A DNA stretch of 64,000 nucleotides from an uncultured Solirubrobacteraceae bacterium. Its GTDB lineage: Bacteria; Actinomycetota; Thermoleophilia; Solirubrobacterales; Solirubrobacteraceae. Shown here piece after piece: positions 2-61,080 of the stretch. Below the pieces are notes generated by a model. It made no database searches and had not been told where the DNA came from. It saw only the letters and a program-made list of their open reading frames with translations. Position 1 is the first letter of the stretch. The number at the start of each line of letters is the position of its first letter. Made by a program: the position numbers and the translations under genes. The stretch lies in assembly GCA_963827335.1 (NCBI GenBank), contig CAWHAP010000014.1, positions 88,554 through 152,553 on the forward strand, written 5' to 3'.

Positions 2-856
2 GGGGCGCTGCTGCTGGAGGACCGGCTGATCAAGACGCTGCGCCCGCCCGGCAACACCCGCGGCAAGCGCACCGCCGACGGCTACGTCTACCTGCGCTGC
101 CGGCTCGACATCCCGTTCCCGATCCTCGAGGTCGCGCTCGAGCCGGCCGCGGGCCACGCCGTCACCGTCGGCCCGGTGCGCGGGCGCGCCGCGGCGTCGG
201 AGCTGGTCGAGCAGCTCAACTCGCTCTTCGGCCTGCGCCACTGCGGCCGGCGCATGCCGCGCCGCGAGCACCCGAGCGCCTACGGGCAGATGGGCCGCTG
301 CCTCTCGCCCTGCCTCGGCGACCTCGACCCGAACCTCTACCGCGAGCGCCTCGACCGGGCGCTGCGGCTCTTCGTCGACTCCCGCGACGGGGGCGGCGCG
401 CTGCTCGCCCACATCGACGGCCAGATCCGCGCCGCCGCCGCCGAGCGCAACTACGAGCGCGCGGCGTGGCTGCGGCGGCGGCGCGAGCGGCTCGAGGCGC
501 TCGTGCGCCGGCTCGGCGGGCTGCTGCGGGCGACGCACGCCGGGGCGCGCCTCGTGCTGGCGCCCCACCCCGAGCGCGGCGCCCACGACGCGTTCTGGCT
601 CGCCGGCGGGCGCGTGGTCGACTGGGGCGCGCTGCCCGGCGACCCGCAGGAGCTGGCCGCGCGCACCGCCGCGGCGCTGCGCGCGGTGCCGCGCCGGGAG
701 CTCGGCGGCTGGCTGCCGGCGGAGGAGCTGGCGGAGATCCGGCTCGTCGGCGCCTGGATCGCGGCGCACGACCCGCCGTGGCTCGAGCTCGACGCGGGCG
801 TGCTCGAGGACGGGCGACTCGCGCGCTGGGTCCGCACCGTAGAGTCCCGGGAGTGA
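2..856 (+). CDS. UvrC-like GIY-YIG / UvrC-homology nuclease, 5' end outside the window
   Basis: The frame is open from the window edge. It reads GALLLEDRLIKTLRPPGN (end of a GIY-YIG-type motif) and continues through ELVEQLNSLFGLRHCGRR...ERNYERAAWLRRRRERLEAL. Stop TGA 854-856. The family call rests on motif recall only. Confidence 0.6.
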   Translation, partial: GALLLEDRLIKTLRPPGNTRGKRTADGYVYLRCRLDIPFPILEVALEPAAGHAVTVGPVRGRAAASELVEQLNSLFGLRHCGRRMPRREHPSAYGQMGRCLSPCLGDLDPNLYRERLDRALRLFVDSRDGGGALLAHIDGQIRAAAAERNYERAAWLRRRRERLEALVRRLGGLLRATHAGARLVLAPHPERGAHDAFWLAGGRVVDWGALPGDPQELAARTAAALRAVPRRELGGWLPAEELAEIRLVGAWIAAHDPPWLELDAGVLEDGRLARWVRTVESRE

Positions 857-44980: not shown

Positions 44981-44983
44981 CAG

Positions 44984-45070
44984 TACCCGGGGCGGGACTC
45001 GAACCCGCACGGCCGCGAAGGGCCAACGGCTTTTGAGGCCGTCGTGTCTGACCAGTTCCACCACCCGGGC
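44984..45070 (-). tRNA. tRNA-Leu (anticodon CAA), type II with long variable arm
   Basis: I folded the minus strand by hand. Acceptor GCCCGGG/CCCGGGT, anticodon arm ACGGC-CTCAAAA-GCCGT, variable stem GGCC/GGCC, T arm GCGGG-TTCGAGT-CCCGC. No encoded CCA. Confidence 0.9.
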
Positions 45071-46478: not shown

Positions 46479-46560
46479 GCGGGCGTGGTGAAACTGGCAA
46501 ACACGCCAGGTTTAGGTCCTGGTGCCGCAAGGCTTGGGGGTTCAAGTCCCTCCGCCCGCA
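46479..46560 (+). tRNA. tRNA-Leu (anticodon TAG), type II
   Basis: Acceptor GCGGGCG/CGCCCGC, anticodon arm CCAGG-TTTAGGT-CCTGG, long variable arm, T arm GGGGG-TTCAAGT-CCCTC. A TACAAT hexamer lies 30 nt upstream (46444-46449). Confidence 0.9.
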
Positions 46561-46940
46561 CTGAGCGCGAGCATCGTCCACGCCGGCAGGCCGCCCGCTA
46601 GGCGCAGCTCGTCGCGCACGACGTAGCCGTGGCGCTCGTACAGGCGCACGTTGCCCGGGGACGAGGTCTCGAGGTAGAGCGGCTCCGCCCCGCGCGCGGC
46701 GAGCGCCCGCAGCATCGCGCCGGCCCGCCCGCGCCCCTGTTGCGCGGGGTCGACCCCGAGCGTGAGCAGCGTCCGGTGCGCGATCTCGGGGTGCGCGCCC
46801 TCGAGGCGGATCAGCCCGCGCAGGACGGTCGGGAGCCGGCGCAGCCCCGTCGTGCGGACCAGGTCGGGCAGCTGGCGCAGCTGGTCGCGCGGCCCGAGGT
46901 CCAGCGCGCCCGGATGAGACGGGCCGCACGCTCCGGGCAT
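46542..46940 (-). CDS. GNAT-family N-acetyltransferase (short; possibly N-terminally truncated)
   Basis: Motif A region LGVDPAQQGRGRAGAMLRAL...LYLETSSPGNVRLYERHGY. Its 3' end overlaps tRNA-Leu(TAG) by 19 nt on the opposite strand. Only about 130 aa from ATG 46940. Confidence 0.55.
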   Translation of the reverse strand: MPGACGPSHPGALDLGPRDQLRQLPDLVRTTGLRRLPTVLRGLIRLEGAHPEIAHRTLLTLGVDPAQQGRGRAGAMLRALAARGAEPLYLETSSPGNVRLYERHGYVVRDELRLAGGLPAWTMLALSAGGGT

Positions 46941-47074: not shown

Positions 47075-48901
47075 ATGGTGCAGGAGCCCAGTCGGGACCC
47101 GGGACGCGAGACGGTCCAGGGGACCTGGGAAGGCGAGTCCGTCGAGTACTTCGCCAACCGGGTGATCGTGAAGTTCAAGGCCGGCCGCGAGGACGCGTCC
47201 GGGATCTCGTCGATCGCGGCCGACCTGGTCGCCGAGGTCGACGAGGCCGCGGCGATCGTGCGCCCGCCCGGCCCGACCCGTCGCGCGCTGGTCGCCGTGA
47301 CGGCCGAGGCCGACGTGGCCGAGGTCGCCGCGAAGCTCTCCGCGCGGCCCGACGTGCTGTACGCCGAGCCGGACATCGTCGACCACGCCGCGGTCACGCC
47401 GAACGACACGCGGCTGGCCGAGCAGTGGTCGCTCCCCATGGTCGACGCGTTCGACGCGTGGGACCTCGAGACGGGCGATCCGACCGTGCTGATCGGGGTC
47501 ATCGACTCCGGCATCTCGATGACCGGGGGCGCGCTCGACCACCCGGACCTGAGCGGCTCGCGCTTCACGCTCGGGACCGACTTCGTCGACGGCGGCGAGC
47601 CGCGCGACCTCAACGGCCACGGCACGCACGTCGCCGGCATCGCGGCCGGCCTCGGCGACAACGCCGCCGGCGTCGCCGGGATGGCGTGGGGCACGCGCGT
47701 CTACATCTGCCGCACGCTCGACGCCGCCGGCAGCGGATCCTCGGCGGACTTCGCCGACGCGGTCGAGGAGATCGTCGACTTCGCGCTGGCGAACAACCTG
47801 AAGGCCGTCATCAACTACAGCGGCGGCGGCGGGGCGAACCAGACCAAGCTGGACGCCTGCAACTACGCGAGCACGAACGGCATGCTCCTGTGCGCCGCCA
47901 CGGGCAACGACGACCACGGGCCGGTCATCTGGCCCGCGGCGTACTCGCTCACGGTCCCGGGCGTCGTCGCGGTCGGCTCGACCGACCAGGCCGACCAGGT
48001 CTCGACGTTCTCCAACGTCGGGCCCGAGGTCACGGTCGTCGCGCCGGGCACGGGGATCCTCTCGGCGATGCCGACGTACGCGGTGACGATCAACGCCGGC
48101 CTCAACTTCGGGACGCTCGACGGCACCTCGATGGCGACGCCGCTCGTCACGGGTCTGGCCGCGCTGATGTGGAGCCGGCACATCGGCTTCACGAACCAGA
48201 AGATCAAGGACTGCCTGATCTCCAGCGCGGTCAAGCTGGGCGCCGGCTCGTTCGACAACGCGTGGGGCAACGGCCGCGTGAGCGCCGAGGCGGCGCTGCG
48301 CTGCGGCGACGTCGTCGTGCTCCCCTCGCTCGTCGGGCCGGGCTGCACGCCGTCGCGGATCATCGTGCAGTGCCCGAGCCGCATCGTCGCGCAGTGCCCG
48401 ACGCGGATCCCGGTCCGCTGCCCGTCGCGGATCATCGTGCAGTGCCCGTCGCTCGTGCCGGAGACGTGCCCGACGCAGGTCCCGGCGCTGTGTCCGACGC
48501 AGGTCCCGGCGCGCTGTCCGTCGCGGGCGCCCGTGCTGTGCCCGGTGTCGCGCGTGCCGGCCGAGTGCCCGTCGCGGCTGCCGGTGCTGTGCCCGACGAC
48601 GCTGGTCCCGGCGACGTGCGGCCGGGTCTCGCAGATCCCGGCGCTGTGCCCGACCCCGTCGGCGATCCCGGCGACGTGCCCGATCCCGTTCCCGGACCTC
48701 CCGATCCCGGACCCGGGACCGCTGCGGCCCGCGGGCGAGGGGTCCGAGCAGTGGTACGGCGATGGCGAGTGGTACGTGCTGGACGACGCGGGCGAGGCAC
48801 GGGCGTTCCCCGGCCCGGACGCGGCCGCCGCCTCGCCGGAGTCGGCGGAGTGGTACTGGCTCGACGACCAGGGCGGGACGCACTACTGGTCCGGCGGTTG
48901 A
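47075..48901 (+). CDS. subtilisin-like (S8) serine protease with N-terminal I9-like propeptide, no signal peptide, and a C-terminal Cys-Pro-Ser/Thr repeat tail
   Basis: GGAGG lies 9 nt upstream of ATG 47075. Catalytic triad contexts are VIGVIDSGI, NGHGTHVAGIAAG and LDGTSMATPLVTG. The propeptide-like region is NRVIVKFKAG...PDVLYAEPD. The N-terminus MVQEPSRDPGRETVQGTWEGE has no hydrophobic segment. Confidence 0.9.
   Translation: MVQEPSRDPGRETVQGTWEGESVEYFANRVIVKFKAGREDASGISSIAADLVAEVDEAAAIVRPPGPTRRALVAVTAEADVAEVAAKLSARPDVLYAEPDIVDHAAVTPNDTRLAEQWSLPMVDAFDAWDLETGDPTVLIGVIDSGISMTGGALDHPDLSGSRFTLGTDFVDGGEPRDLNGHGTHVAGIAAGLGDNAAGVAGMAWGTRVYICRTLDAAGSGSSADFADAVEEIVDFALANNLKAVINYSGGGGANQTKLDACNYASTNGMLLCAATGNDDHGPVIWPAAYSLTVPGVVAVGSTDQADQVSTFSNVGPEVTVVAPGTGILSAMPTYAVTINAGLNFGTLDGTSMATPLVTGLAALMWSRHIGFTNQKIKDCLISSAVKLGAGSFDNAWGNGRVSAEAALRCGDVVVLPSLVGPGCTPSRIIVQCPSRIVAQCPTRIPVRCPSRIIVQCPSLVPETCPTQVPALCPTQVPARCPSRAPVLCPVSRVPAECPSRLPVLCPTTLVPATCGRVSQIPALCPTPSAIPATCPIPFPDLPIPDPGPLRPAGEGSEQWYGDGEWYVLDDAGEARAFPGPDAAAASPESAEWYWLDDQGGTHYWSGG
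48344..48700 (+). repeat. in-frame tandem 24-27-nt repeats encoding about 14 Cys-Pro-(Ser/Thr)-x5 units
   Basis: CTPSRIIVQ CPSRIVAQ CPTRIPVR CPSRIIVQ CPSLVPET CPTQVPAL CPTQVPAR CPSRAPVL CPVSRVPAE CPSRLPVL CPTTLVPAT CGRVSQIPAL CPTPSAIPAT CPIPFPDL. The TGCCCG(A/T)C(G/C) periodicity is visible in the DNA. Confidence 0.9.
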
Positions 48902-49851
48902 CCGAGGAGCACGGGCCGGCGGCGATCGTGCAGCTGCGCGCCGCCGGCCTCCTCTCCGCACGCGAGATCGTCGAGCAGGGCGTGCGCGTGGTCGACCGGT
49001 CGCGCTCGCACGCGGTCCGGCTCGTCGAGGTCGGCAGCCGCCCGGCCTACGCGGTCAAGGCCCTGGACGACGGCGCCGACGGCGACGTCCAGGGCTCGCC
49101 CGCGCGCGAGCTCGCGGCCTACGCGCTCGCGCGCAGCGACCCGGGGCTCGCGCCGCTGCTCGCACGCAGCCACCCCGCCGCCGACGGCGCGGGCGTCCTG
49201 ATCCTCGAGGCCGGCGGGTCCGCGACCGCGGCGGCGAGCGCCGCCGACCCCGCAGCGCTGCGGGCGCTCGCCACCACGCTCGCGGCGTGGCACGCCGGCA
49301 CGCGCGGCGTGCCGTTCCCGCCGCTGCGGCCGTGGCCGCTCGACCTGCTGGCCGGCGCCCCGCCCGCCTTCCTCGCGGGCAACGACGGCGTGCGCGCGCT
49401 GCTCGCCTGGCTGCCGGAGCGCGCGCTGCTGACGGCCACGCTCGCCGCGGCCGGCGCGCGCTGGGCGCCGCTGGCCGTCGTCCACGGGGACGCGCGGCTC
49501 GACAACTGGCTGCTCGACGGGGCCGGCGGCGCGACGCTGATCGACTGGGAGACGTCCGGGCGCGGCGACCCGGCCTGGGACGTCGCCGCCGTCCTCCAGG
49601 ACGTGATCACCGTGAGCGGCGCCGAGCGGCTCGCCGCCGTGCCCGCCGCGCGCGTGCGCCCGTTCCTGGACGCCTACGCGCAGGCGGCGGGCGACGACGT
49701 GCGCGAGCGGCTCGCCGGGCTGCTGTGCGCGCGGCTGCTGCAGCGCGCGGTGCAGGCGGCGGCGTGGGATCCGGCGGGGACGGTGCCCGAGGCGCGGCGC
49801 CATGCGCGCCTCGCCGCCGAGCTCGCCGGCCGGCCGCCGGCATGGGCATGA
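48898..49851 (+). CDS. aminoglycoside-phosphotransferase-like (APH / protein-kinase-like fold) kinase
   Basis: Catalytic loop VVHGDARLDNWLL and LIDWETSGRGDPAWDVA; N-lobe AYAVKAL. The start is uncertain: TTG 48898 (overlapping the protease stop, TTGA) or GTG 48928. Confidence 0.75.
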   Translation: MTEEHGPAAIVQLRAAGLLSAREIVEQGVRVVDRSRSHAVRLVEVGSRPAYAVKALDDGADGDVQGSPARELAAYALARSDPGLAPLLARSHPAADGAGVLILEAGGSATAAASAADPAALRALATTLAAWHAGTRGVPFPPLRPWPLDLLAGAPPAFLAGNDGVRALLAWLPERALLTATLAAAGARWAPLAVVHGDARLDNWLLDGAGGATLIDWETSGRGDPAWDVAAVLQDVITVSGAERLAAVPAARVRPFLDAYAQAAGDDVRERLAGLLCARLLQRAVQAAAWDPAGTVPEARRHARLAAELAGRPPAWA

Positions 49852-50729
49852 CCGTCGAGGAGCAGCTGCGCGAGGCCGCGGCGCTGGTCCGCCCCGGCAC
49901 GGGCCGGGAGGCGCTCGCCGAGGCCCTCTACGCCGGCTGGTACCTGCAGCTCGCCGCCGAGCCGCCACCGTCCGGGCCGCTGCGCCCGATCGAGCTCGAC
50001 GTCGTCGCCGCCCTGCGCGCCGCCCATGCCGGCAGCGACCGCTTCGAGCCGGGCTGGCGGGCGCGGCGCGTCTCGACCCATGGCCGCGCCGAGGCGGTCC
50101 GCGGCGACCTGACCCGCGTGGTGGACCGCGGCGACTACCTCGTCCTCGCCCGCCCGGGCCTGCGCGCCGAGCCCGGCGACGAGCTGGCGCTGCTCGCGCG
50201 CGAGGACACGGTCGAGAACGGGTTCTGGATGACGTTCTTCGGCGACTGGGAGGAGGCGGCCAAGGCGGTCGTCACGCGGCTCTACTGGCGCGTGTCCGCG
50301 GCCGGCGCGCCCGCGCTCGTGCGGGCGCTCACCGGCGTGCTGCTCGACGGCGGGGCGTCCGCCGCGCTCAAGGCGCCCGTGCGGGCCGACGGCTTCGGGC
50401 GCGCCGACGCCGTCGTCGTCTACCTGCCGCCGCCGACCTTCTCCGCGCTGTCGGACCGCCTCGCCGCGGTCGCGGCGGCACTGGAGGGGGAGCTGCGCGA
50501 CCCGCCGCCGCGGCTCGCGCGCCGCCTCGCCCGCGGCGTGGGCGCCGCGGAGGGCCGTGCCGGCGCCGAGAGCTTCGGCCAGGCGCGCTGCCGGCTGGTC
50601 GCCGCCGCCCTCGCGGCGCCGGGCGACGAGCCGCCCGTCGAGCGCATCCGGGCGACCTTCGCCGCGGCCGGGCTCGATCCCGTCCGCCCGCACCTCGAGC
50701 CCGGGAGCCGCGAGCGCTATGCCTGGTGA
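49842..50729 (+). CDS. HopA1-effector-like family protein (putative phospho-Ser/Thr lyase component)
   Basis: VTRLYWRVSAAGAPALVRALTGVLLDGG...LKAPVRADGFGRADAVVVYLPP matches my recollection of the actinobacterial HopA1-family pattern. ATG 49842 or ATG 49848 (the latter overlaps the kinase stop as ATGA). Confidence 0.6.
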   Translation: MGMTVEEQLREAAALVRPGTGREALAEALYAGWYLQLAAEPPPSGPLRPIELDVVAALRAAHAGSDRFEPGWRARRVSTHGRAEAVRGDLTRVVDRGDYLVLARPGLRAEPGDELALLAREDTVENGFWMTFFGDWEEAAKAVVTRLYWRVSAAGAPALVRALTGVLLDGGASAALKAPVRADGFGRADAVVVYLPPPTFSALSDRLAAVAAALEGELRDPPPRLARRLARGVGAAEGRAGAESFGQARCRLVAAALAAPGDEPPVERIRATFAAAGLDPVRPHLEPGSRERYAW

Positions 50730-51969
50730 CGGCGCGCGCCTGCTGGAGGCGGCGTGCGCGGTGGGCGATCAGCTCGTGCGCGACGCGGTGTGGTGGGACG
50801 GGCGCTGCACCTGGCTCGGCGACGCCGTCGAGCTCGACGAGGACGAGTGGCGCGTCGTGCACCGCTCCTGTGCCGGCGATCTCTACGCGGGCACGAGCGG
50901 GGTCGGCGTGTTCCTCGCCCGGCTCGCCGAGCACACCGGCGACGACCGGCACGGCGCGGCCGCGCGGGGCGCGCTGCTCCAGGCGCTGGCCGGCGCCGAC
51001 GGCGACCTCTCGCTCTACGGCGGAGCCACGGGCGTCGCGTGGGCGGCGGCCGAGGCGGGACGGGCGACCGGCGACGACGAGCTGCTCGAGCACGCGGCGG
51101 CGCTGACGGCCCGGATCGCCGCGGATGCGGCCGGCGGCGTCTTCGCCGACGACCTCGTCGGCGGCCGCGCGGGGGTCGCGCTGGGCCTGCTCGACCTCGG
51201 CCGGCGGCTCGGGCTGCCGGCGGCGCGGAGCGCCGCGCTGGACCTCGGGGAGGCGCTCGTGGCCGTCGCGCACCGGGACGCGAGCGGATTGTCGTGGCCG
51301 CTCGGCACGCCGCCCGGCGAGCCCGGCCTGTGCGGGCTCGGGCACGGCGCCGCCGGCGTCGCCCACGCGCTGCTCGAGCTGCACGCGGCCGGCGGCGACG
51401 CCGCGCTCGGAGCGGCGGCCGCCTCCGCCGCGGCCTACGAGCGCGCCTGGCTGAGCCCGGCGCAGGCGAACTGGCCCGACCTGCGCGGCCTGGAGCGCGA
51501 CGCCGTCGCGGCCGGCACGCTCCCCGCGTACTCGAGCTTCTGGTGCCACGGCTCGGTGGGCGTCGGGCTGGCGCGGCTGCGCGCGTGGGAGCTGACCGGC
51601 TCCCAGCGCGACCTCGCGGACGCCGGCATCGCGCTGCAGGCCGCGACGCACGACGCGCGGGCGCTCGTCGCCGGCGGCGACCCGTCGCTCTGCCACGGCG
51701 TCGCCGGGCTCGCCGAGCTGTTCCTCTACGCGGGCGAGGTCCTCGGGCGGCCCGAGCACCGCGCCGTCGGCTGCCGGCTCGCGGCGACGATCGTCGACGC
51801 GCGCGAACGGACCGGCACGTGGGGGAGCGGGGTGCTCGGCGGCGGGGAGGCGCCCGGCCTCATGGTCGGCCTCGCGGGCCTCGGCTGCGTGCTCCTGCGT
51901 GCCGCTCTGCCCGGGCGCAGCGCGCCCGCCGGGCTGCTCTGCGTCCCGGCTGCGACAATCTCGGCATGA
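50719..51969 (+). CDS. LanC-like lanthionine cyclase
   Basis: Motifs LYAGTSGVGVFL, GLGHGAAGVAHALLEL, SFWCHGSVGVGLA and SLCHGVAGLAELF, i.e. the conserved His and the Cys-His Zn-ligand pairs of LanC. The ATG overlaps the upstream gene by 11 nt. Confidence 0.85.
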   Translation: MPGDGARLLEAACAVGDQLVRDAVWWDGRCTWLGDAVELDEDEWRVVHRSCAGDLYAGTSGVGVFLARLAEHTGDDRHGAAARGALLQALAGADGDLSLYGGATGVAWAAAEAGRATGDDELLEHAAALTARIAADAAGGVFADDLVGGRAGVALGLLDLGRRLGLPAARSAALDLGEALVAVAHRDASGLSWPLGTPPGEPGLCGLGHGAAGVAHALLELHAAGGDAALGAAAASAAAYERAWLSPAQANWPDLRGLERDAVAAGTLPAYSSFWCHGSVGVGLARLRAWELTGSQRDLADAGIALQAATHDARALVAGGDPSLCHGVAGLAELFLYAGEVLGRPEHRAVGCRLAATIVDARERTGTWGSGVLGGGEAPGLMVGLAGLGCVLLRAALPGRSAPAGLLCVPAATISA

Positions 51970-52208
51970 GCGAGGAGCCGCGCGCCCTGTCGCGCGTGAT
52001 CGTGAAGCTCACCGGCACGGATCTCGAGGCGCGCGCCGCCGAGCTCGCCGGCCGGCTGCCAGGCGGCACCGTCGTGCGCGTCTCCGGCTCGGGCCGCGCC
52101 GTGATCGCCATCGAGCCCGGCGCCGACACCGCCGCGGCGGCCGCCTCGCTCTCCGCGGAGCCCGACGTGGTCTACGCCGAGCCCGACACCGAGGACCGCG
52201 CCGTCTAG
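51966..52208 (+). CDS. stand-alone subtilisin-propeptide (inhibitor I9)-like protein
   Basis: 80 aa. The ATG overlaps the LanC stop (ATGA). SRVIVKLTG...LSAEPDVVYAEPDTEDRAV parallels the protease's own NRVIVKFKAG...LSARPDVLYAEPDIVDHAAV. It contains no Cys. Confidence 0.7.
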   Translation: MSEEPRALSRVIVKLTGTDLEARAAELAGRLPGGTVVRVSGSGRAVIAIEPGADTAAAAASLSAEPDVVYAEPDTEDRAV

Positions 52209-54542: not shown

Positions 54543-54614
54543 GGGGGACTGGTCCAACGGCTAGGATGGCGGTCTCCAAAACCGCAGGTTGGGGTTCGAT
54601 TCCCTGGTCCCCCG
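54543..54614 (+). tRNA. tRNA-Trp (anticodon CCA)
   Basis: Acceptor GGGGGAC/GTCCCCC, anticodon arm GCGGT-CTCCAAA-ACCGC, T loop TTCGATT. The T stem has two G-U pairs. Confidence 0.8.
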
Positions 54615-54615
54615 C

Positions 54616-56409: not shown

Positions 56410-56480
56410 GCGGGCGAAGTGTTGTGGTTGCACAGAAGCCTTCCAAGCTTCTAGGGCGGGTTCGATTCCCGTCGCCCGCT
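56410..56480 (+). tRNA. tRNA-Gly (anticodon TCC)
   Basis: Acceptor GCGGGCG/CGCCCGC, anticodon arm GAAGC-CTTCCAA-GCTTC, T arm GCGGG-TTCGATT-CCCGT. 71 nt. Confidence 0.9.
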
Positions 56481-56493
56481 TGCGTGACAGCCA

Positions 56494-56567
56494 CGGGGAG
56501 TGGCGCAGTCTGGTAGCGCACCCGGCTGGGGGCCGGGCGGTCGCAGGTTCAAATCCTGTCTCCCCGA
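56494..56567 (+). tRNA. tRNA-Pro (anticodon GGG)
   Basis: Acceptor CGGGGAG/CTCCCCG, D arm GCGC/GCGC, anticodon arm CCCGG-CTGGGGG-CCGGG, T arm GCAGG-TTCAAAT-CCTGT. 74 nt. Confidence 0.9.
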
Positions 56568-57890: not shown

Positions 57891-58823
57891 GTGCCGCTGC
57901 TCTGGCGAATCTTCGTGGGCAACGCCCTGGTGCTCGGGGTCGCGACGACGGCGCTGGTGCTCACGCCCGTGACGGTCTCGTTCCCGGCCGCCGAGCGCGA
58001 GCTGGTGGTCCTCGCGGCGGGGCTCGCGGTGATGCTGCTGGTCAACTACGTGTTGCTGCGACGCGCCGTGGCGCCGCTCCGGCGGCTCGCGCTGGTGATG
58101 CGGGAGGTGGATCCGCTGGCGCCGGGCCGGCGGGCGCGCCTGCCGGGCGCGCCGGCGGAGGTGGCGGAGCTCGGGGTCGCGTTCGACCAGATGCTGCAGC
58201 GGCTCGAGGCCGAGCGGCGTGAGTCGGCTCGCCGGGCGCTGGCTGCCCAGGAGGCCGAGCGGCTGCGGATCGCGCGCGAGCTGCACGACGAGGTCGGGCA
58301 GGCGCTCACGGCGGTGCTGCTGCAGCTCGACCGCGTCCAGGTCGCAGTGGACGGGGAGCCTGCCGAGCGGATCCGCGAGGCGCGAGAGACCGCACGCGAG
58401 ACGCTCGAGGAGGTGCGGGCGATCGCGCGGAACCTGCGTCCCGAGGCGTTGGACGACCTCGGCCTGGCGGCCGCGTTGCGGCAGTTGTGCCTCGAGGCGG
58501 AGCGGGCGGGCGCGATGGTCGAGCGCGTGATCGCTTCGGGCATCTCGCTCGATGCCGAGGCGGAGGTCGTGGTCTATCGCGTCGCGCAGGAGGCGATCAC
58601 GAACGCGCTGCGCCATGCGGGCGCGGAGCGCATCAGGATCAGGTTCGGTCGGGAGGGCGGCACGACGGTGCTTTGCGTGGACGATGACGGGAGTGGGACC
58701 TTGGGCGCCGAGGAGGGCGCAGGCGTGCGGGGGATGCGTGAGCGCGCCGTGCTGGTCGGCGGGGCGCTGGAGCTGAGCGCAGCGCCGGGCGGCGGGACGT
58801 CGGTGACCCTGAGGTTGCCGTGA
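57891..58823 (+). CDS. membrane sensor histidine kinase (HAMP + HisKA_3 + HATPase)
   Basis: GTG start. Two N-terminal TM segments. H-box ERLRIARELHDEVGQALT. Motifs QEAITNALRHAGA, DDDGSG and GVRGMRERA. Confidence 0.9.
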   Translation: MPLLWRIFVGNALVLGVATTALVLTPVTVSFPAAERELVVLAAGLAVMLLVNYVLLRRAVAPLRRLALVMREVDPLAPGRRARLPGAPAEVAELGVAFDQMLQRLEAERRESARRALAAQEAERLRIARELHDEVGQALTAVLLQLDRVQVAVDGEPAERIREARETARETLEEVRAIARNLRPEALDDLGLAAALRQLCLEAERAGAMVERVIASGISLDAEAEVVVYRVAQEAITNALRHAGAERIRIRFGREGGTTVLCVDDDGSGTLGAEEGAGVRGMRERAVLVGGALELSAAPGGGTSVTLRLP

Positions 58824-59458
58824 CGGCTGCGCGGATCCTGTTGGCCGACGACCACGCGATGGTCCGCAAGGGGTTGCGGATGGTCCTCGATGCGCAGCCC
58901 GATCTGACGGTGGTCGCGGAGGCGGGGGACGGCGCGGAGGCGATCGAGCTCGGCATCCGTGAGGACGTTGACTTGGCGGTGCTGGATGTCTCGATGCCGA
59001 AGTTCACCGGTCTGCAGGCCGCCGCCGAGCTGGCGCGCCGGCGGCCGGGGTTGCGGATCTTGATGCTCTCGATGCACGATTCGGAGCAGTACCTGTTCGA
59101 GGCGCTGAGGGCGGGTGCGTCGGGCTATGTGCTCAAGTCGGGGGCGGACCGCGACCTGGTGGAGGCGTGCCGGGCGGCGATGCGTGGCGAGCCGTTCCTG
59201 TATCCGGCCGCCGTCACGCGGCTGATCGGTGACATGCTGGCTCGGCCGGAGGAGCCGGTGGATCCGCTGACGCCGCGCGAGCTGCAGGTGGTCAAGCTGA
59301 TCGCGGAGGCGCACACGAGCGAGCAGATCGCGGAGTTGTTGGTGATCAGCCCGCGCACGGTGGATCGCCATCGCGAGAACATCCTGGCCAAGCTCGGGAT
59401 GCGCGATCGCGTCGAGCTGACCCGCTACGCGATCCGGCGCGGTCTCATCGAGCCCTGA
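58820..59458 (+). CDS. NarL/LuxR-family response regulator
   Basis: The GTG overlaps the kinase stop (GTGA). ILLADDHAMVRKGL, LDVSMP, and the LuxR HTH LTPRELQVVKLIAEAHTSEQIAELLVISPRTVDRH. Confidence 0.9.
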   Translation: MTAARILLADDHAMVRKGLRMVLDAQPDLTVVAEAGDGAEAIELGIREDVDLAVLDVSMPKFTGLQAAAELARRRPGLRILMLSMHDSEQYLFEALRAGASGYVLKSGADRDLVEACRAAMRGEPFLYPAAVTRLIGDMLARPEEPVDPLTPRELQVVKLIAEAHTSEQIAELLVISPRTVDRHRENILAKLGMRDRVELTRYAIRRGLIEP

Positions 59459-59536
59459 AGATGGGAGCGCGCTCGCTCCGGGATGGGAGCGTCCGCCCAT
59501 GGAAGCGACGCGACAGCCTGCGCAGGATGGGCCGTC

Positions 59537-59827
59537 GTGCGCGTCCTGGTGCTGTGGATCCGCTGCTACGTCATCTCGGCCGAGGAGGACGCGCGCTGGG
59601 CGCACGAGGAGACCGAGAAGCTCCGCGCGTGTGACGGGGTGCTGGACCTCGCGCTGCATCGCGTCGAGAAGGTCGGGACGCGGCATGTCCGTCAGTGGGA
59701 CTGGTGCCTCGAGCTGCACGTGGCCGGCGGCGAGGTCATGCGCCAGCGGCGGCTCGCGGAGTTCGTCGCTGATCTGCGGCTGCTGGGAACGCGGCCGGCC
59801 ATGCTCGCGCTTCCGGAGGCCGTGTGA
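59537..59827 (+). CDS. small hypothetical protein
   Basis: VRVLVLWIRCYVISAEEDARWAHEETEKLRACDGVLDLALHRVE... The start is uncertain (GTG 59537 chosen; the track ORF begins at 59483). Its stop overlaps the next start (GTGATG). Confidence 0.45.
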   Translation: MRVLVLWIRCYVISAEEDARWAHEETEKLRACDGVLDLALHRVEKVGTRHVRQWDWCLELHVAGGEVMRQRRLAEFVADLRLLGTRPAMLALPEAV

Positions 59828-61080
59828 TGGCCCTGGCCGTCGGCATCTTCGTGGTCGCGCTGGGCGTGATCGTCAGCGAGAAGGTCCATCGGACCAAGAT
59901 CGCGCTCGCGGGCGCCGTGGCGGTCGTGGTGACGCAGACCGTCAGTCAGGAGGAGGCGATCGGCGCGATCGACTTCAACACGCTGGGGCTGCTGGCGGGG
60001 ATGATGCTGATCGTCCGGCTGACCGAGACGACCGGGGTCTACACGTACCTGGCGATCCGCGCCGGGCAGCTCGCGCGCGGCCGTCCGCTGCTCGTGGTGC
60101 TCGCGCTCGCCGGGTCGACCGCGCTGCTCAGCGCGTTCCTGGACAACCTCACGACCGTGCTCCTGATCGTGCCGATCACGTTCCTGCTGGCCGACACGCT
60201 CGATATCGATCCGCTGCCGCTGGTGCTGATCGAGATCATCACCTCCAACATAGGCGGCACCGCGACGCTGATCGGCGACCCGCCGAACATCATGATCGCC
60301 GGCGCGACCGGACTGAGCTTCGTCGAGTTCATCGTCAATCTCGCGCCGATCGCGATCGTCACGTTCGTCGTGATCACCGGGGTCCTCTACCTGTGGTTTC
60401 GCCCGCGGCTGCAGATCGCGCCCGAGGCGCGCGACCGGGTGATGGAGCTCGACGCGCGCCGCTCGATCGAGGACCCCGAGGAGCTCAAGCGCGCCCTGCC
60501 GGTCCTGCTCGGGACGATCCTGCTGTTCTTCGTGCACAAGCCGCTGCACCTGGAGCCCGCGACCGTCGCGATGCTTGGCGCGACCGTGCTGTTGCTGGTC
60601 ACGACCCAGCCGTTGGAGTCCTCGCTGGCGGGGATCGAGTGGGCGACGCTGTTCTTCTTCATCGGCCTGTTCGTGATGGTCGGCGCGCTGGAGGAGACGG
60701 GCGCGATCGGGGAGATCGCCGACGGCGTCGCCGAGCTCACCGGCGGCGATCGCACCGCGGAGCTGATGGGCATCATGTGGATCTCCGGGATCGCCTCCGG
60801 CATCGTGGACAACATCCCGTTCACCGCCACGATGATCCCTGTGGTGGAGCAGCTCCAGGGCGAGACCATGGACGACGCCTACTGGTGGGCGCTGGCGCTC
60901 GGCGCGTGCTTCGGCGGCAACTTCACGCTCGTGGCGGCCGCGGCCAACGTCGCAGCCGCGGGCATGGCCGAGCGCGCCGGGCGGCCGATCCGGTTCGTCG
61001 AGTTCCTCAAGGTGGGCGTGCCTGCGACGCTGATCTCTCTGCTGCTCGCGACCGTCTACGTTCTGCTGAGGTATGCCTGA
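59824..61080 (+). CDS. ArsB/NhaD-superfamily permease (citrate-transporter-like anion/ion permease)
   Basis: 418 aa, about 10-12 TM helices. Motifs LSAFLDNLTTVLLIVPIT, SNIGGTATLIGDPPNIMI and GIVDNIPFTATMIPV are typical of this family. Confidence 0.8.
   Translation: MMALAVGIFVVALGVIVSEKVHRTKIALAGAVAVVVTQTVSQEEAIGAIDFNTLGLLAGMMLIVRLTETTGVYTYLAIRAGQLARGRPLLVVLALAGSTALLSAFLDNLTTVLLIVPITFLLADTLDIDPLPLVLIEIITSNIGGTATLIGDPPNIMIAGATGLSFVEFIVNLAPIAIVTFVVITGVLYLWFRPRLQIAPEARDRVMELDARRSIEDPEELKRALPVLLGTILLFFVHKPLHLEPATVAMLGATVLLLVTTQPLESSLAGIEWATLFFFIGLFVMVGALEETGAIGEIADGVAELTGGDRTAELMGIMWISGIASGIVDNIPFTATMIPVVEQLQGETMDDAYWWALALGACFGGNFTLVAAAANVAAAGMAERAGRPIRFVEFLKVGVPATLISLLLATVYVLLRYA

Follow-up and report, generated by a model that had tools for sequence, protein, structure and literature searches.

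A class Vb-type lanthionine synthetase operon in which a repeat-tailed S8 protease probably takes the place of the precursor peptide

Within a window of 64,000 nucleotides from an uncultured Solirubrobacteraceae bacterium (contig CAWHAP010000014.1, forward-strand positions 88,554 to 152,553; G+C content about 75%), five open reading frames (ORFs) on the plus strand form an operon at window positions 47075-52208. It encodes a subtilisin-like S8 protease with a repetitive tail (gene 1), the enzymes LanK, LanY and LanC (genes 2-4), and a small protein that resembles a protease prodomain (gene 5). The genes are chained by overlapping starts and stops, and the four junctions given in a first-pass annotation of this DNA were all found again on re-reading, i.e., TTGA at 48898-48901 between genes 1 and 2, ATGA at 49848-49851 between genes 2 and 3, an 11-nt overlap at 50719-50729 between genes 3 and 4, and ATGA at 51966-51969 between genes 4 and 5, the last of which ends with a stop codon at 52206-52208. 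The annotation had assigned genes 1 to 4 to the S8, APH, HopA1 and LanC families, and Pfam profiles matched each of them (E=2e-47, 5.5e-16, 7.6e-26 and 8.4e-49, respectively); none of these four enzymes has lost its catalytic residues. In public collections the same gene products are present as 'subtilisin family serine protease', 'lantibiotic modifying enzyme' or 'hypothetical protein'. As detailed below, the comparative evidence indicates that the Cys/Ser/Thr tail of the protease is very probably the substrate of the adjoining LanK, LanY and LanC.

Gene 1 (47075-48901) encodes a cytoplasmic, thermitase-like S8 protease of 608 aa that is fused to a lanthipeptide-precursor-like tail, and it can thus be described as a LanP-LanA fusion. 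The protein starts with a cis prodomain (residues 19-100, positions 47129-47374; Pfam Fervidolysin_NPro-like, E=1.3e-10), which is followed by the catalytic domain identified with Pfam (residues 137-400, positions 47483-48274) with the triad D144/H182/S352 and the oxyanion residue N278. H182, N278 and S352 do not vary across 55 homologues, and at least 90% of these also keep D144. Among proteins of solved structure, AK.1 protease and thermitase match best, and the alignment with mature thermitase begins at residue 108. The best NCBIfam match was the mycosin model TIGR03921, with 150.9 bits and thus below the cut-off of 278.75. By inspection, neither an N-terminal hydrophobic signal nor a C-terminal transmembrane segment could be recognized, in agreement with the earlier statement that the protease has no signal peptide.

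The catalytic domain is followed by the repeat tail, the proposed core (residues 424-535, positions 48344-48679), which is built from 14 units of the type C-P-[ST]-[RQ]-x4 and is encoded by a 24-nt tandem DNA repeat. Its 14 Cys are spaced 8-10 residues apart, and 19 Ser/Thr and 23 Pro are present in 112 residues, while Lys, Asp and aromatic residues are missing. S418 precedes the first tail Cys, and no Ser/Thr donor is found after the last one. The tail is followed by a C-terminal module (residues 566-607, positions 48770-48895), which consists of two copies of about 17 aa with the motif W[YF]x[LV]DDxGxxHxW, starting at residues 566 and 593. An AlphaFold2 model of the protein was built with 55 homologues that have Cys-rich tails (Cys-type). 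In this model the prodomain and the catalytic domain are folded, the latter mostly with predicted local distance difference test (pLDDT) values of 70-97, and residues 415-565 are devoid of secondary structure (pLDDT about 25). Two short beta-hairpins are predicted within residues 566-608 (strands 566-569/575-578 and 593-596/602-605, pLDDT 57-66), and each of them corresponds to one copy of the motif.

Gene 2 (48898-49851) begins with a TTG codon that overlaps the stop codon of the protease gene and encodes LanK, an APH-fold Ser/Thr kinase of 317 aa with the catalytic motifs HGDARLDN at 196 and IDWE at 215; an identical 317-aa gene call exists in public collections. Gene 3 (49848-50729) encodes LanY, a HopA1-type (PF17914) phosphoSer/Thr lyase of 293 aa. 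Its residues R144, K175, R185 and Y192 are invariant in the window protein and 22 homologues. In CaoY the residues R187, K219, R229 and Y236 are important for elimination, and the spacing of these residues, 32/10/17, is nearly the same as that of LanY, 31/10/17 (PMC9486802). In addition, a LanY-family profile aligned the pattern R..K..RxDAxVxY onto the solved 'Lyase' chain 9dk1_B (E=9e-12). The first-pass annotation had taken the APH kinase and the HopA1 lyase for the dehydration pair of class V pathways, and Ser/Thr dehydration by such a pair has indeed been reconstituted with CaoK and CaoY (PMC9486802). Gene 4 (50719-51969) encodes LanC, a zinc-dependent lanthionine cyclase of 416 aa with Cys/Cys/His zinc ligands and the motifs GHG at 208, WCHG at 275 and LCHG at 324; with the latter two and the two kinase motifs, all motifs quoted in the annotation were located. 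Among the NCBIfam models the LanM cyclase region gave 226 bits and the LanL model 126 bits, and the best solved relative is LicM2 (6st5).

An exhaustive HMMER search retrieved 3829 relatives of LanY among representatives clustered at 50% identity. Many of the top matches were LanY-LanC fusions of 740-822 aa, which independently tie the lyase to the cyclase. Two further fusions, P0236 (1115 aa) and P0289 (1193 aa), have an extra C-terminal region of 350-430 residues with a DDLxDLLxD-type motif and without a Pfam match. A search of a plasmid collection with LanY resulted in one distant cyanobacterial match. Pathways with LanK, LanY and a LanC cyclase are termed 'class Vb' and, according to two papers, were first shown for SmoA/SmoC by Pei et al. 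2022 (PMC12291118, PMC12328550). By its domain composition and catalytic motifs, the trio in the window is a lanthionine synthetase of this already described type. As class Vb has been published, the enzymes are not new, and novelty is confined to the architecture of the substrate.

To place the operon in a wider context, 49 related loci (numbered L001 to L049) were collected with protein-identity look-ups, a one-genome-per-species scan and a metagenome scan, and conclusions about loci were based on ORFs verified with phmmer or Pfam. LanK, LanY and LanC are encoded in this order in all related loci that are long enough to show it; the exceptions are L014, in which LanY alone was detected, and L003 and L004, in which genes are broken by apparent assembly errors. 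In L003, a syntenic relative on a metagenome contig (L003:7423-12709), the genes for the S8 protease, the kinase and LanC are broken into several frames, which could be an assembly or frameshift artefact or a decaying copy. In every locus in which the respective DNA is present, about 40 in number, the gene directly upstream of LanK encodes a protein with an end rich in Cys and Ser/Thr, with the single exception of L005, in which this carrier is encoded downstream of LanC. The positional rule spans Actinomycetota, Gemmatimonadota, Acidobacteriota, Myxococcota and Pseudomonadota.

The proteins in this position are very diverse. S8 carriers were found in the window and in L001-3, L008-11, L024/25, L028, L032, L045 and L046. 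Unrelated serine proteases of a trypsin/Nal1-like type with a GDSGS motif occupy the position in L004 (7423-8760), L012 (7527-8864), L013 (5689-7113), L021 (7282-8967), L022/43 (L022:2246-3715), L026/29 (L026:4189-5598) and L040/41 (L040:194-1651). They are encoded directly upstream of LanK-LanY-LanC and share a conserved acidic C-terminal helix (..FW.GY.AAL[ED]..); their matches to Trypsin and Nal1 models were below threshold in the Pfam and NCBIfam scans, and precomputed PF25819 (Nal1_C) assignments exist for many homologues. A third group, with 165-505 aa, combines an N-terminal domain outside the known families with a C-terminus rich in Cys, Pro, Ser and Thr with up to 23 Cys, and occurs in Acidobacteriota, Myxococcota and other phyla (L019/L039, L020/L036, L035, L038, L044). 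The respective precursor-like proteins of medium size are encoded at L020:8039-8722, L036:5084-5767, L038:4116-5633, L039:5010-5570 (equal to L019:8010-8570), L044:5113-5610, L035:62-739 and, in the exceptional locus, L005:4749-5420. With phmmer a shared N-terminal domain was recognized only for L020/L036, L038, L039 and L044, and Pfam and NCBIfam gave no family for the non-protease carriers. Small peptides of about 35-110 aa with two to six Cys are present in L015, L016, L018, L023 and L031. The Undibacterium precursor (92 aa, L015:8290-8568) has two PATQKTCTQTCGC units, and the Gemmatimonadota precursors (L016:3067-3312, L018:8510-8800, L031:3245-3571, L023:4179-4283) have a Lys/Pro/Ala repeat (KKPAKKPAKKP) followed by RPGC-x-TTG-x-x-C. 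Judged by their sequences, the Gemmatimonadota and Undibacterium peptides are classic-looking members of the synthetase clade. Tails with Cys and Ser/Thr thus occur together with LanK, LanY and LanC on three unrelated carrier domains, in line with the first-pass proposal, and from the positional equivalence it follows that the S8 gene would be the precursor gene.

A more conventional explanation would be that the S8 protein is nothing but a LanP-type leader peptidase, that a small precursor is encoded elsewhere or was missed, and that the Cys tail has an unrelated role. S8 proteases are indeed common as leader peptidases, unclustered lanthipeptide genes have been documented (PMC8960859, PMC10885120), and the distant relatives of the synthetase do use small precursors. 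However, these small precursors occupy the same position as the S8 gene, and short separate precursors were encountered in these distant lineages only, not throughout the homologous operons. The first-pass annotation had noted no small Cys-containing precursor ORF in or beside the operon, and the outcome was the same when both strands of the window at 44-56 kb were scanned for ORFs that encode 20-130 aa, contain two or more Cys and have a coding-like G+C content at third codon positions: no plausible small precursor was found, and the scan yielded only a small membrane protein and antisense artefacts. Since the genes overlap, there is also no room for a small precursor ORF inside the cassette. 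Furthermore, Demequina iriomotensis and Kribbella sp. NPDC026611 have the complete five-gene cassette in other surroundings, again with no extra ORF. Together with the sequence rule of the tails on unrelated carriers and the Cys-free tails of sister proteins that lack LanK, LanY and LanC (both described below), these results make a conventional cluster very unlikely.

The tails were further characterized using a search with the whole S8 protein, which retrieved more than 120 clusters of 540-650 aa with 50-98% identity; tail types were counted in the best 120. Among these, 63 have Cys-type tails (median 12 Cys, modal spacing 8), and 61 of them could be parsed for tail statistics. All inter-Cys segments (635/635) contain Ser/Thr, while shuffling of the non-Cys residues resulted in a fraction of 83.5 +/- 1.1% and a maximum of 86.6% in 500 shuffles. 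Likewise, every tail Cys (696/696) has a Ser/Thr 3-8 residues upstream. The arrangement is polar: the first Cys has an upstream donor in 61/61 tails, and the last Cys has a Ser/Thr just downstream in 16/61. In lanthipeptides, donors are usually located N-terminal to their acceptors. As far as the sequences reveal, the tails share this polarity, with which one ring could form for each Cys. In addition, Arg follows Ser/Thr 3.8 times more often than is predicted from the Arg frequency. The trypsin-like carriers gave a very similar picture, as 114 of the 120 best matches have Cys tails built from [VIL]-T-[RK]-P-x-x-C units, and 805 of 808 segments contain Ser/Thr. At the sequence level, the Ser/Thr-before-Cys rule is therefore one that holds on two unrelated protease scaffolds.

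The same rule bears on the question of whether the tail is acted upon without the formation of intramolecular rings. In that case the enzymes would only dehydrate it, or LanC would add a small thiol such as mycothiol, much as eukaryotic LanCL does with glutathione, and the tail Cys would bind metal or form disulfides. LanC-family enzymes can add thiols intermolecularly (PMC9934072); moreover, genes for a ZIP transporter and a multicopper oxidase adjoin the operon. Yet a Ser/Thr upstream of every Cys is a prediction of intramolecular pairing, the window LanC shares the complete set of zinc ligands with cyclases that form rings, and in other genera the cassette is not accompanied by the metal genes. 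Disulfides in the tail are unlikely because the protein is cytoplasmic. A role of the tail without rings was consequently regarded as highly improbable.

Additional evidence came from 43 close S8 homologues among the best 120 that have almost Cys-free tails with x-F-T triplets (e.g., FTRFTSLTRFTRFT) and a different C-terminal region (FT-type; P0128, P0112 and P0083, also P0080 and P0132). In all three FT-type contexts that could be retrieved (L047:9001-11758 in Humitalea sp., as well as L048:9001-11788 and L049:6001-8651 on metagenome or read-assembly contigs) a GT2 glycosyltransferase gene overlaps the stop codon of the protease gene, and LanK, LanY and LanC are missing. In contrast, the trio is present in all 13 of the Cys-type S8 contexts. 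The covariation of the Cys tail with the three enzymes, which the first-pass annotation had suggested as a check, was thus observed. The chemistry of the tail tracks the adjacent enzyme, as is to be expected if the tail is the substrate of that enzyme. The xFT repeats are probably O-glycosylated by the adjacent GT2, judged from this gene arrangement; a description of FT-type repeat-tail proteases with a GT2 was not found in the literature. The C-terminal hairpin motif also discriminates between the two types, as it occurs in 54/63 Cys-type tails versus 0/43 FT-type tails; it may be a recognition element of the follower type.

Gene 5 (51966-52208) encodes a free-standing paralogue of the protease prodomain with 80 aa. 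The first-pass annotation had described it as I9-propeptide-like; the I9-type prodomain fold was corroborated, but the Pfam match is to Fervidolysin_NPro-like (E=8.4e-8) and not to the Inhibitor_I9 model itself. The protein aligns with the cis prodomain over its full length and terminates with ...YAEPDTEDRAV, which marks the boundary between the prodomain and the mature enzyme because mature thermitase aligns from residue 108 of the S8 protein. A prodomain copy is encoded by a separate gene after LanC in L002, L003, L007, L045 and L046, whereas in L008, L009 and L010 from Sinosporangium, in L011 from Nonomuraea and in L028 it forms an in-frame C-terminal extension of LanC. Pfam confirmed the fusion in L008, L009 and L011, and the fused prodomains end within 0-4 residues of the same boundary. 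In the trypsin-type cassettes no trans copy of the N-terminal region of the protease was found. Subtilase prodomains bind their own catalytic domain and insert their C-terminal strand into its active-site cleft. Based on the LanC fusions and on this behaviour of subtilase prodomains, it is proposed that gene 5 may dock LanC onto the protease domain and/or block proteolysis until modification is complete.

Taken together, the results are best described by a class Vb-type system in which the precursor's own protease either stands in for the precursor gene or is fused to it, with about 14 thioether rings and docking or gating by a prodomain copy; this reading as a whole was considered rather probable. 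The S8 protein with its prodomain, its catalytic domain, a disordered tail of about 150 residues and two C-terminal hairpins would be the substrate, as suggested by the comparative evidence. By analogy to CaoK and CaoY, LanK would phosphorylate the Ser/Thr that precedes each tail Cys by 3-8 residues, often in an [ST]-R context, and LanY would eliminate the phosphate to generate dehydroalanine or dehydrobutyrine. The zinc-containing LanC would then add each downstream Cys thiol, leading to about 14 consecutive small (methyl)lanthionine rings, from Ser/Thr(i) to Cys(i+3..8), with Pro between them. The gene 5 product would most likely bind the catalytic domain, tether LanC and hold the protease off until the rings are complete. 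In the last and least certain step, suggested by the conserved triad, the protease might cut in cis or between copies and free the ring-laddered tail. That the tail is the substrate of ring-forming enzymes had already been put forward in the first-pass annotation, and this part gained support from the position of the gene, the Ser/Thr-Cys rule and the covariation.

Several points weigh against this model. The repeats go back to duplication of DNA and the homologues share ancestry, so that the 696/696 cases do not amount to 696 independent observations. LanK matched the LxmK model (NCBIfam NF038156) with only 29.7 bits over 46 residues, compared with a cut-off of 315. The topology of the rings cannot be derived from sequence, and their number and pairing are predictions. 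Genes for export, immunity or additional tailoring are not conserved along with the cassette, which is unusual for a released bioactive peptide. Finally, a conserved C-terminal module follows the tail, and in the FT-type sisters this place is taken by a larger C-terminal region with a conserved sequence of its own; this arrangement fits a 'modified linker' as well as a 'core peptide'.

The latter two points lead to the explanation that the tail is modified but retained, and that the rings form a stiff, protease-resistant tether to the C-terminal hairpins, parallel to O-glycosylated Thr-rich linkers of the FT/GT2 type. The tail is internal, with the conserved module behind it in the 54 of 63 Cys-type proteins mentioned above, the FT-type sisters combine a longer conserved C-terminal region with a glycosyltransferase, and some units, e.g., CPSRLPVLCP, are kept across genera. 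On the other hand, the same synthetase clade serves small peptides and non-protease carriers in which the Cys region is located at the extreme C-terminus, indicating that the tail itself would be the functional product, and the conserved triad as well as the elaborate prodomain control fit a cutting step. As a full alternative to the class Vb-type model, a retained tail was therefore regarded as unlikely, though by no means negligible. The fate of the tail within the proposed system was judged separately. Release, for which the interchangeable N-terminal carriers, the free small precursors in the enzyme clade, the conserved triad and the prodomain control speak, was given an even chance, retention as a protease-proof cross-linked tether a smaller but still considerable one, and any other fate a slight one.

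The proposed system was compared with known ones. Class Vb, in which SmoK, SmoY and SmoC act on SmoA, has the same three stand-alone enzymes (PF01636, PF17914 and a zinc LanC, PF05147) and the same expected chemistry, and LanD, LanX and an AviCys machinery are missing from both. The differences concern the substrate, which in class Vb is a short leader-core peptide, whereas the corresponding position in the window is occupied by a 608-aa protease that carries about 14 proposed ring units in tandem and a follower-like module, and the second prodomain copy linked to LanC, which only the window has; this comparison is based on the description of class Vb in PMC12291118 and PMC12328550. Class Va and thioamitide pathways (CaoK/CaoY, LxmK/LxmY, TvaC/TvaD) share the APH and HopA1 pair, and the R/K/R/Y residues of CaoY are conserved in the window, but they have no LanC, and LanX/LanD form AviCys on small precursors. 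The class IV enzyme LanL follows the same logic of lyase, kinase and zinc LanC, but it unites an OspF-type lyase and a Ser/Thr protein-kinase domain in one polypeptide, whereas the window encodes three proteins with APH and HopA1 folds. LanP proteases such as NisP and EpiP are likewise S8 proteases with an N-terminal prodomain in a lanthipeptide cluster, and the Asp/His/Ser triad is present in the window protein. However, LanP is separate from the precursor, while in the window the protease and the putative core are one ORF without signal or anchor, and a trans copy of the prodomain is added.

Two further systems are similar in part. In the borosin OphMA a folded enzyme carries its own substrate tail, but the fused enzyme is the modifying methyltransferase and not a protease. 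The cyanobactin precursor PatE contains tandem cores that are processed by the S8 proteases PatA and PatG, but protease and precursor are encoded by separate genes; the PatA/G model gave 52 bits with the window protease, compared with a cut-off of 421. A haloarchaeal 'protease-precursor system' from the literature was considered as well and turned out to be unrelated. The first-pass annotation had stated that no system with this architecture was known to it. The enzyme trio itself has been published as class Vb (PMC12291118, PMC12328550), but the architecture of the substrate was not found described. In open-access full texts and bioRxiv, neither a protease-fused or tandem-repeat lanthipeptide precursor nor a prodomain-LanC fusion was found; subscription journals may differ. 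The chemistry is that of class Vb, while the substrate architecture is new and the mode of recognition is probably new as well.

Lanthipeptide mining assumes a short precursor ORF, and tools that seek small ORFs would miss cassettes of this kind. Among the best 120 clusters of each search, at least about 60 S8 and about 114 trypsin-like clusters are suggested to hide multi-ring cores in proteins of 450-650 aa. If the model is true, this would be natural lanthionine chemistry on a folded protein, with a new kind of substrate recognition, in which a prodomain docks the cyclase onto the protease domain, and with a built-in timing device of the type 'modify first, cut later'. It would also offer a compact five-gene toolkit for the installation of many tandem thioether rings on a fusion protein. 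More tentatively, a folded protease might serve as the 'leader' of a giant precursor with prodomain docking, leading to a self-released ladder of about 14 rings or to a permanently stapled protein, and it might represent a general and widespread class of carrier enzymes with modified tails, which would include the Cys, the xFT/glycosyltransferase and the trypsin-like versions. The cassette is present in the cultured strains Demequina iriomotensis, Kribbella sp. NPDC026611, Sinosporangium siamense NBRC 109515, S. album CPCC 201354 and Nonomuraea sp. NPDC050556, and the idea is thus directly testable.

Lastly, the surroundings of the cassette were inspected. A metal-handling role, which the adjoining ZIP transporter and multicopper-oxidase genes might suggest, was rejected because this neighbourhood is common only to close relatives; both genes are absent beside the same cassette in Demequina and Kribbella. 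An anti-phage defence system was also rejected, as PADLOC gave a generic 'subtilase' match for gene 1 and none for genes 2-5. In L002 two TIR-domain proteins and a PP2C phosphatase are encoded about 5-8 kb downstream of the cassette (L002:17136-20915), and in Demequina a phage integrase and a P4 cII-like gene follow downstream (L045:17276-19737). These flanking genes (TIR, PP2C, integrase) have no consistent link to the cassette. Promoter and terminator scans and Rfam revealed nothing except tRNAs in the window. Five tRNA genes (Leu-CAA, Leu-TAG, Trp, Gly and Pro; 44983-45070, 46479-46561, 54543-54615 and 56410-56567) bracket the operon; the tRNA-Leu(TAG) gene ends about 510 nt upstream of the start of the S8 gene, and an ORF for a GNAT acetyltransferase is located between them on the opposite strand. 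The GC skew is 0.176 in the block 58001-60000, compared with values of at most about 0.05 elsewhere in the window, and this block overlaps the genes of a LuxR-type two-component pair as well as the beginning of a gene for a CBS-domain protein.

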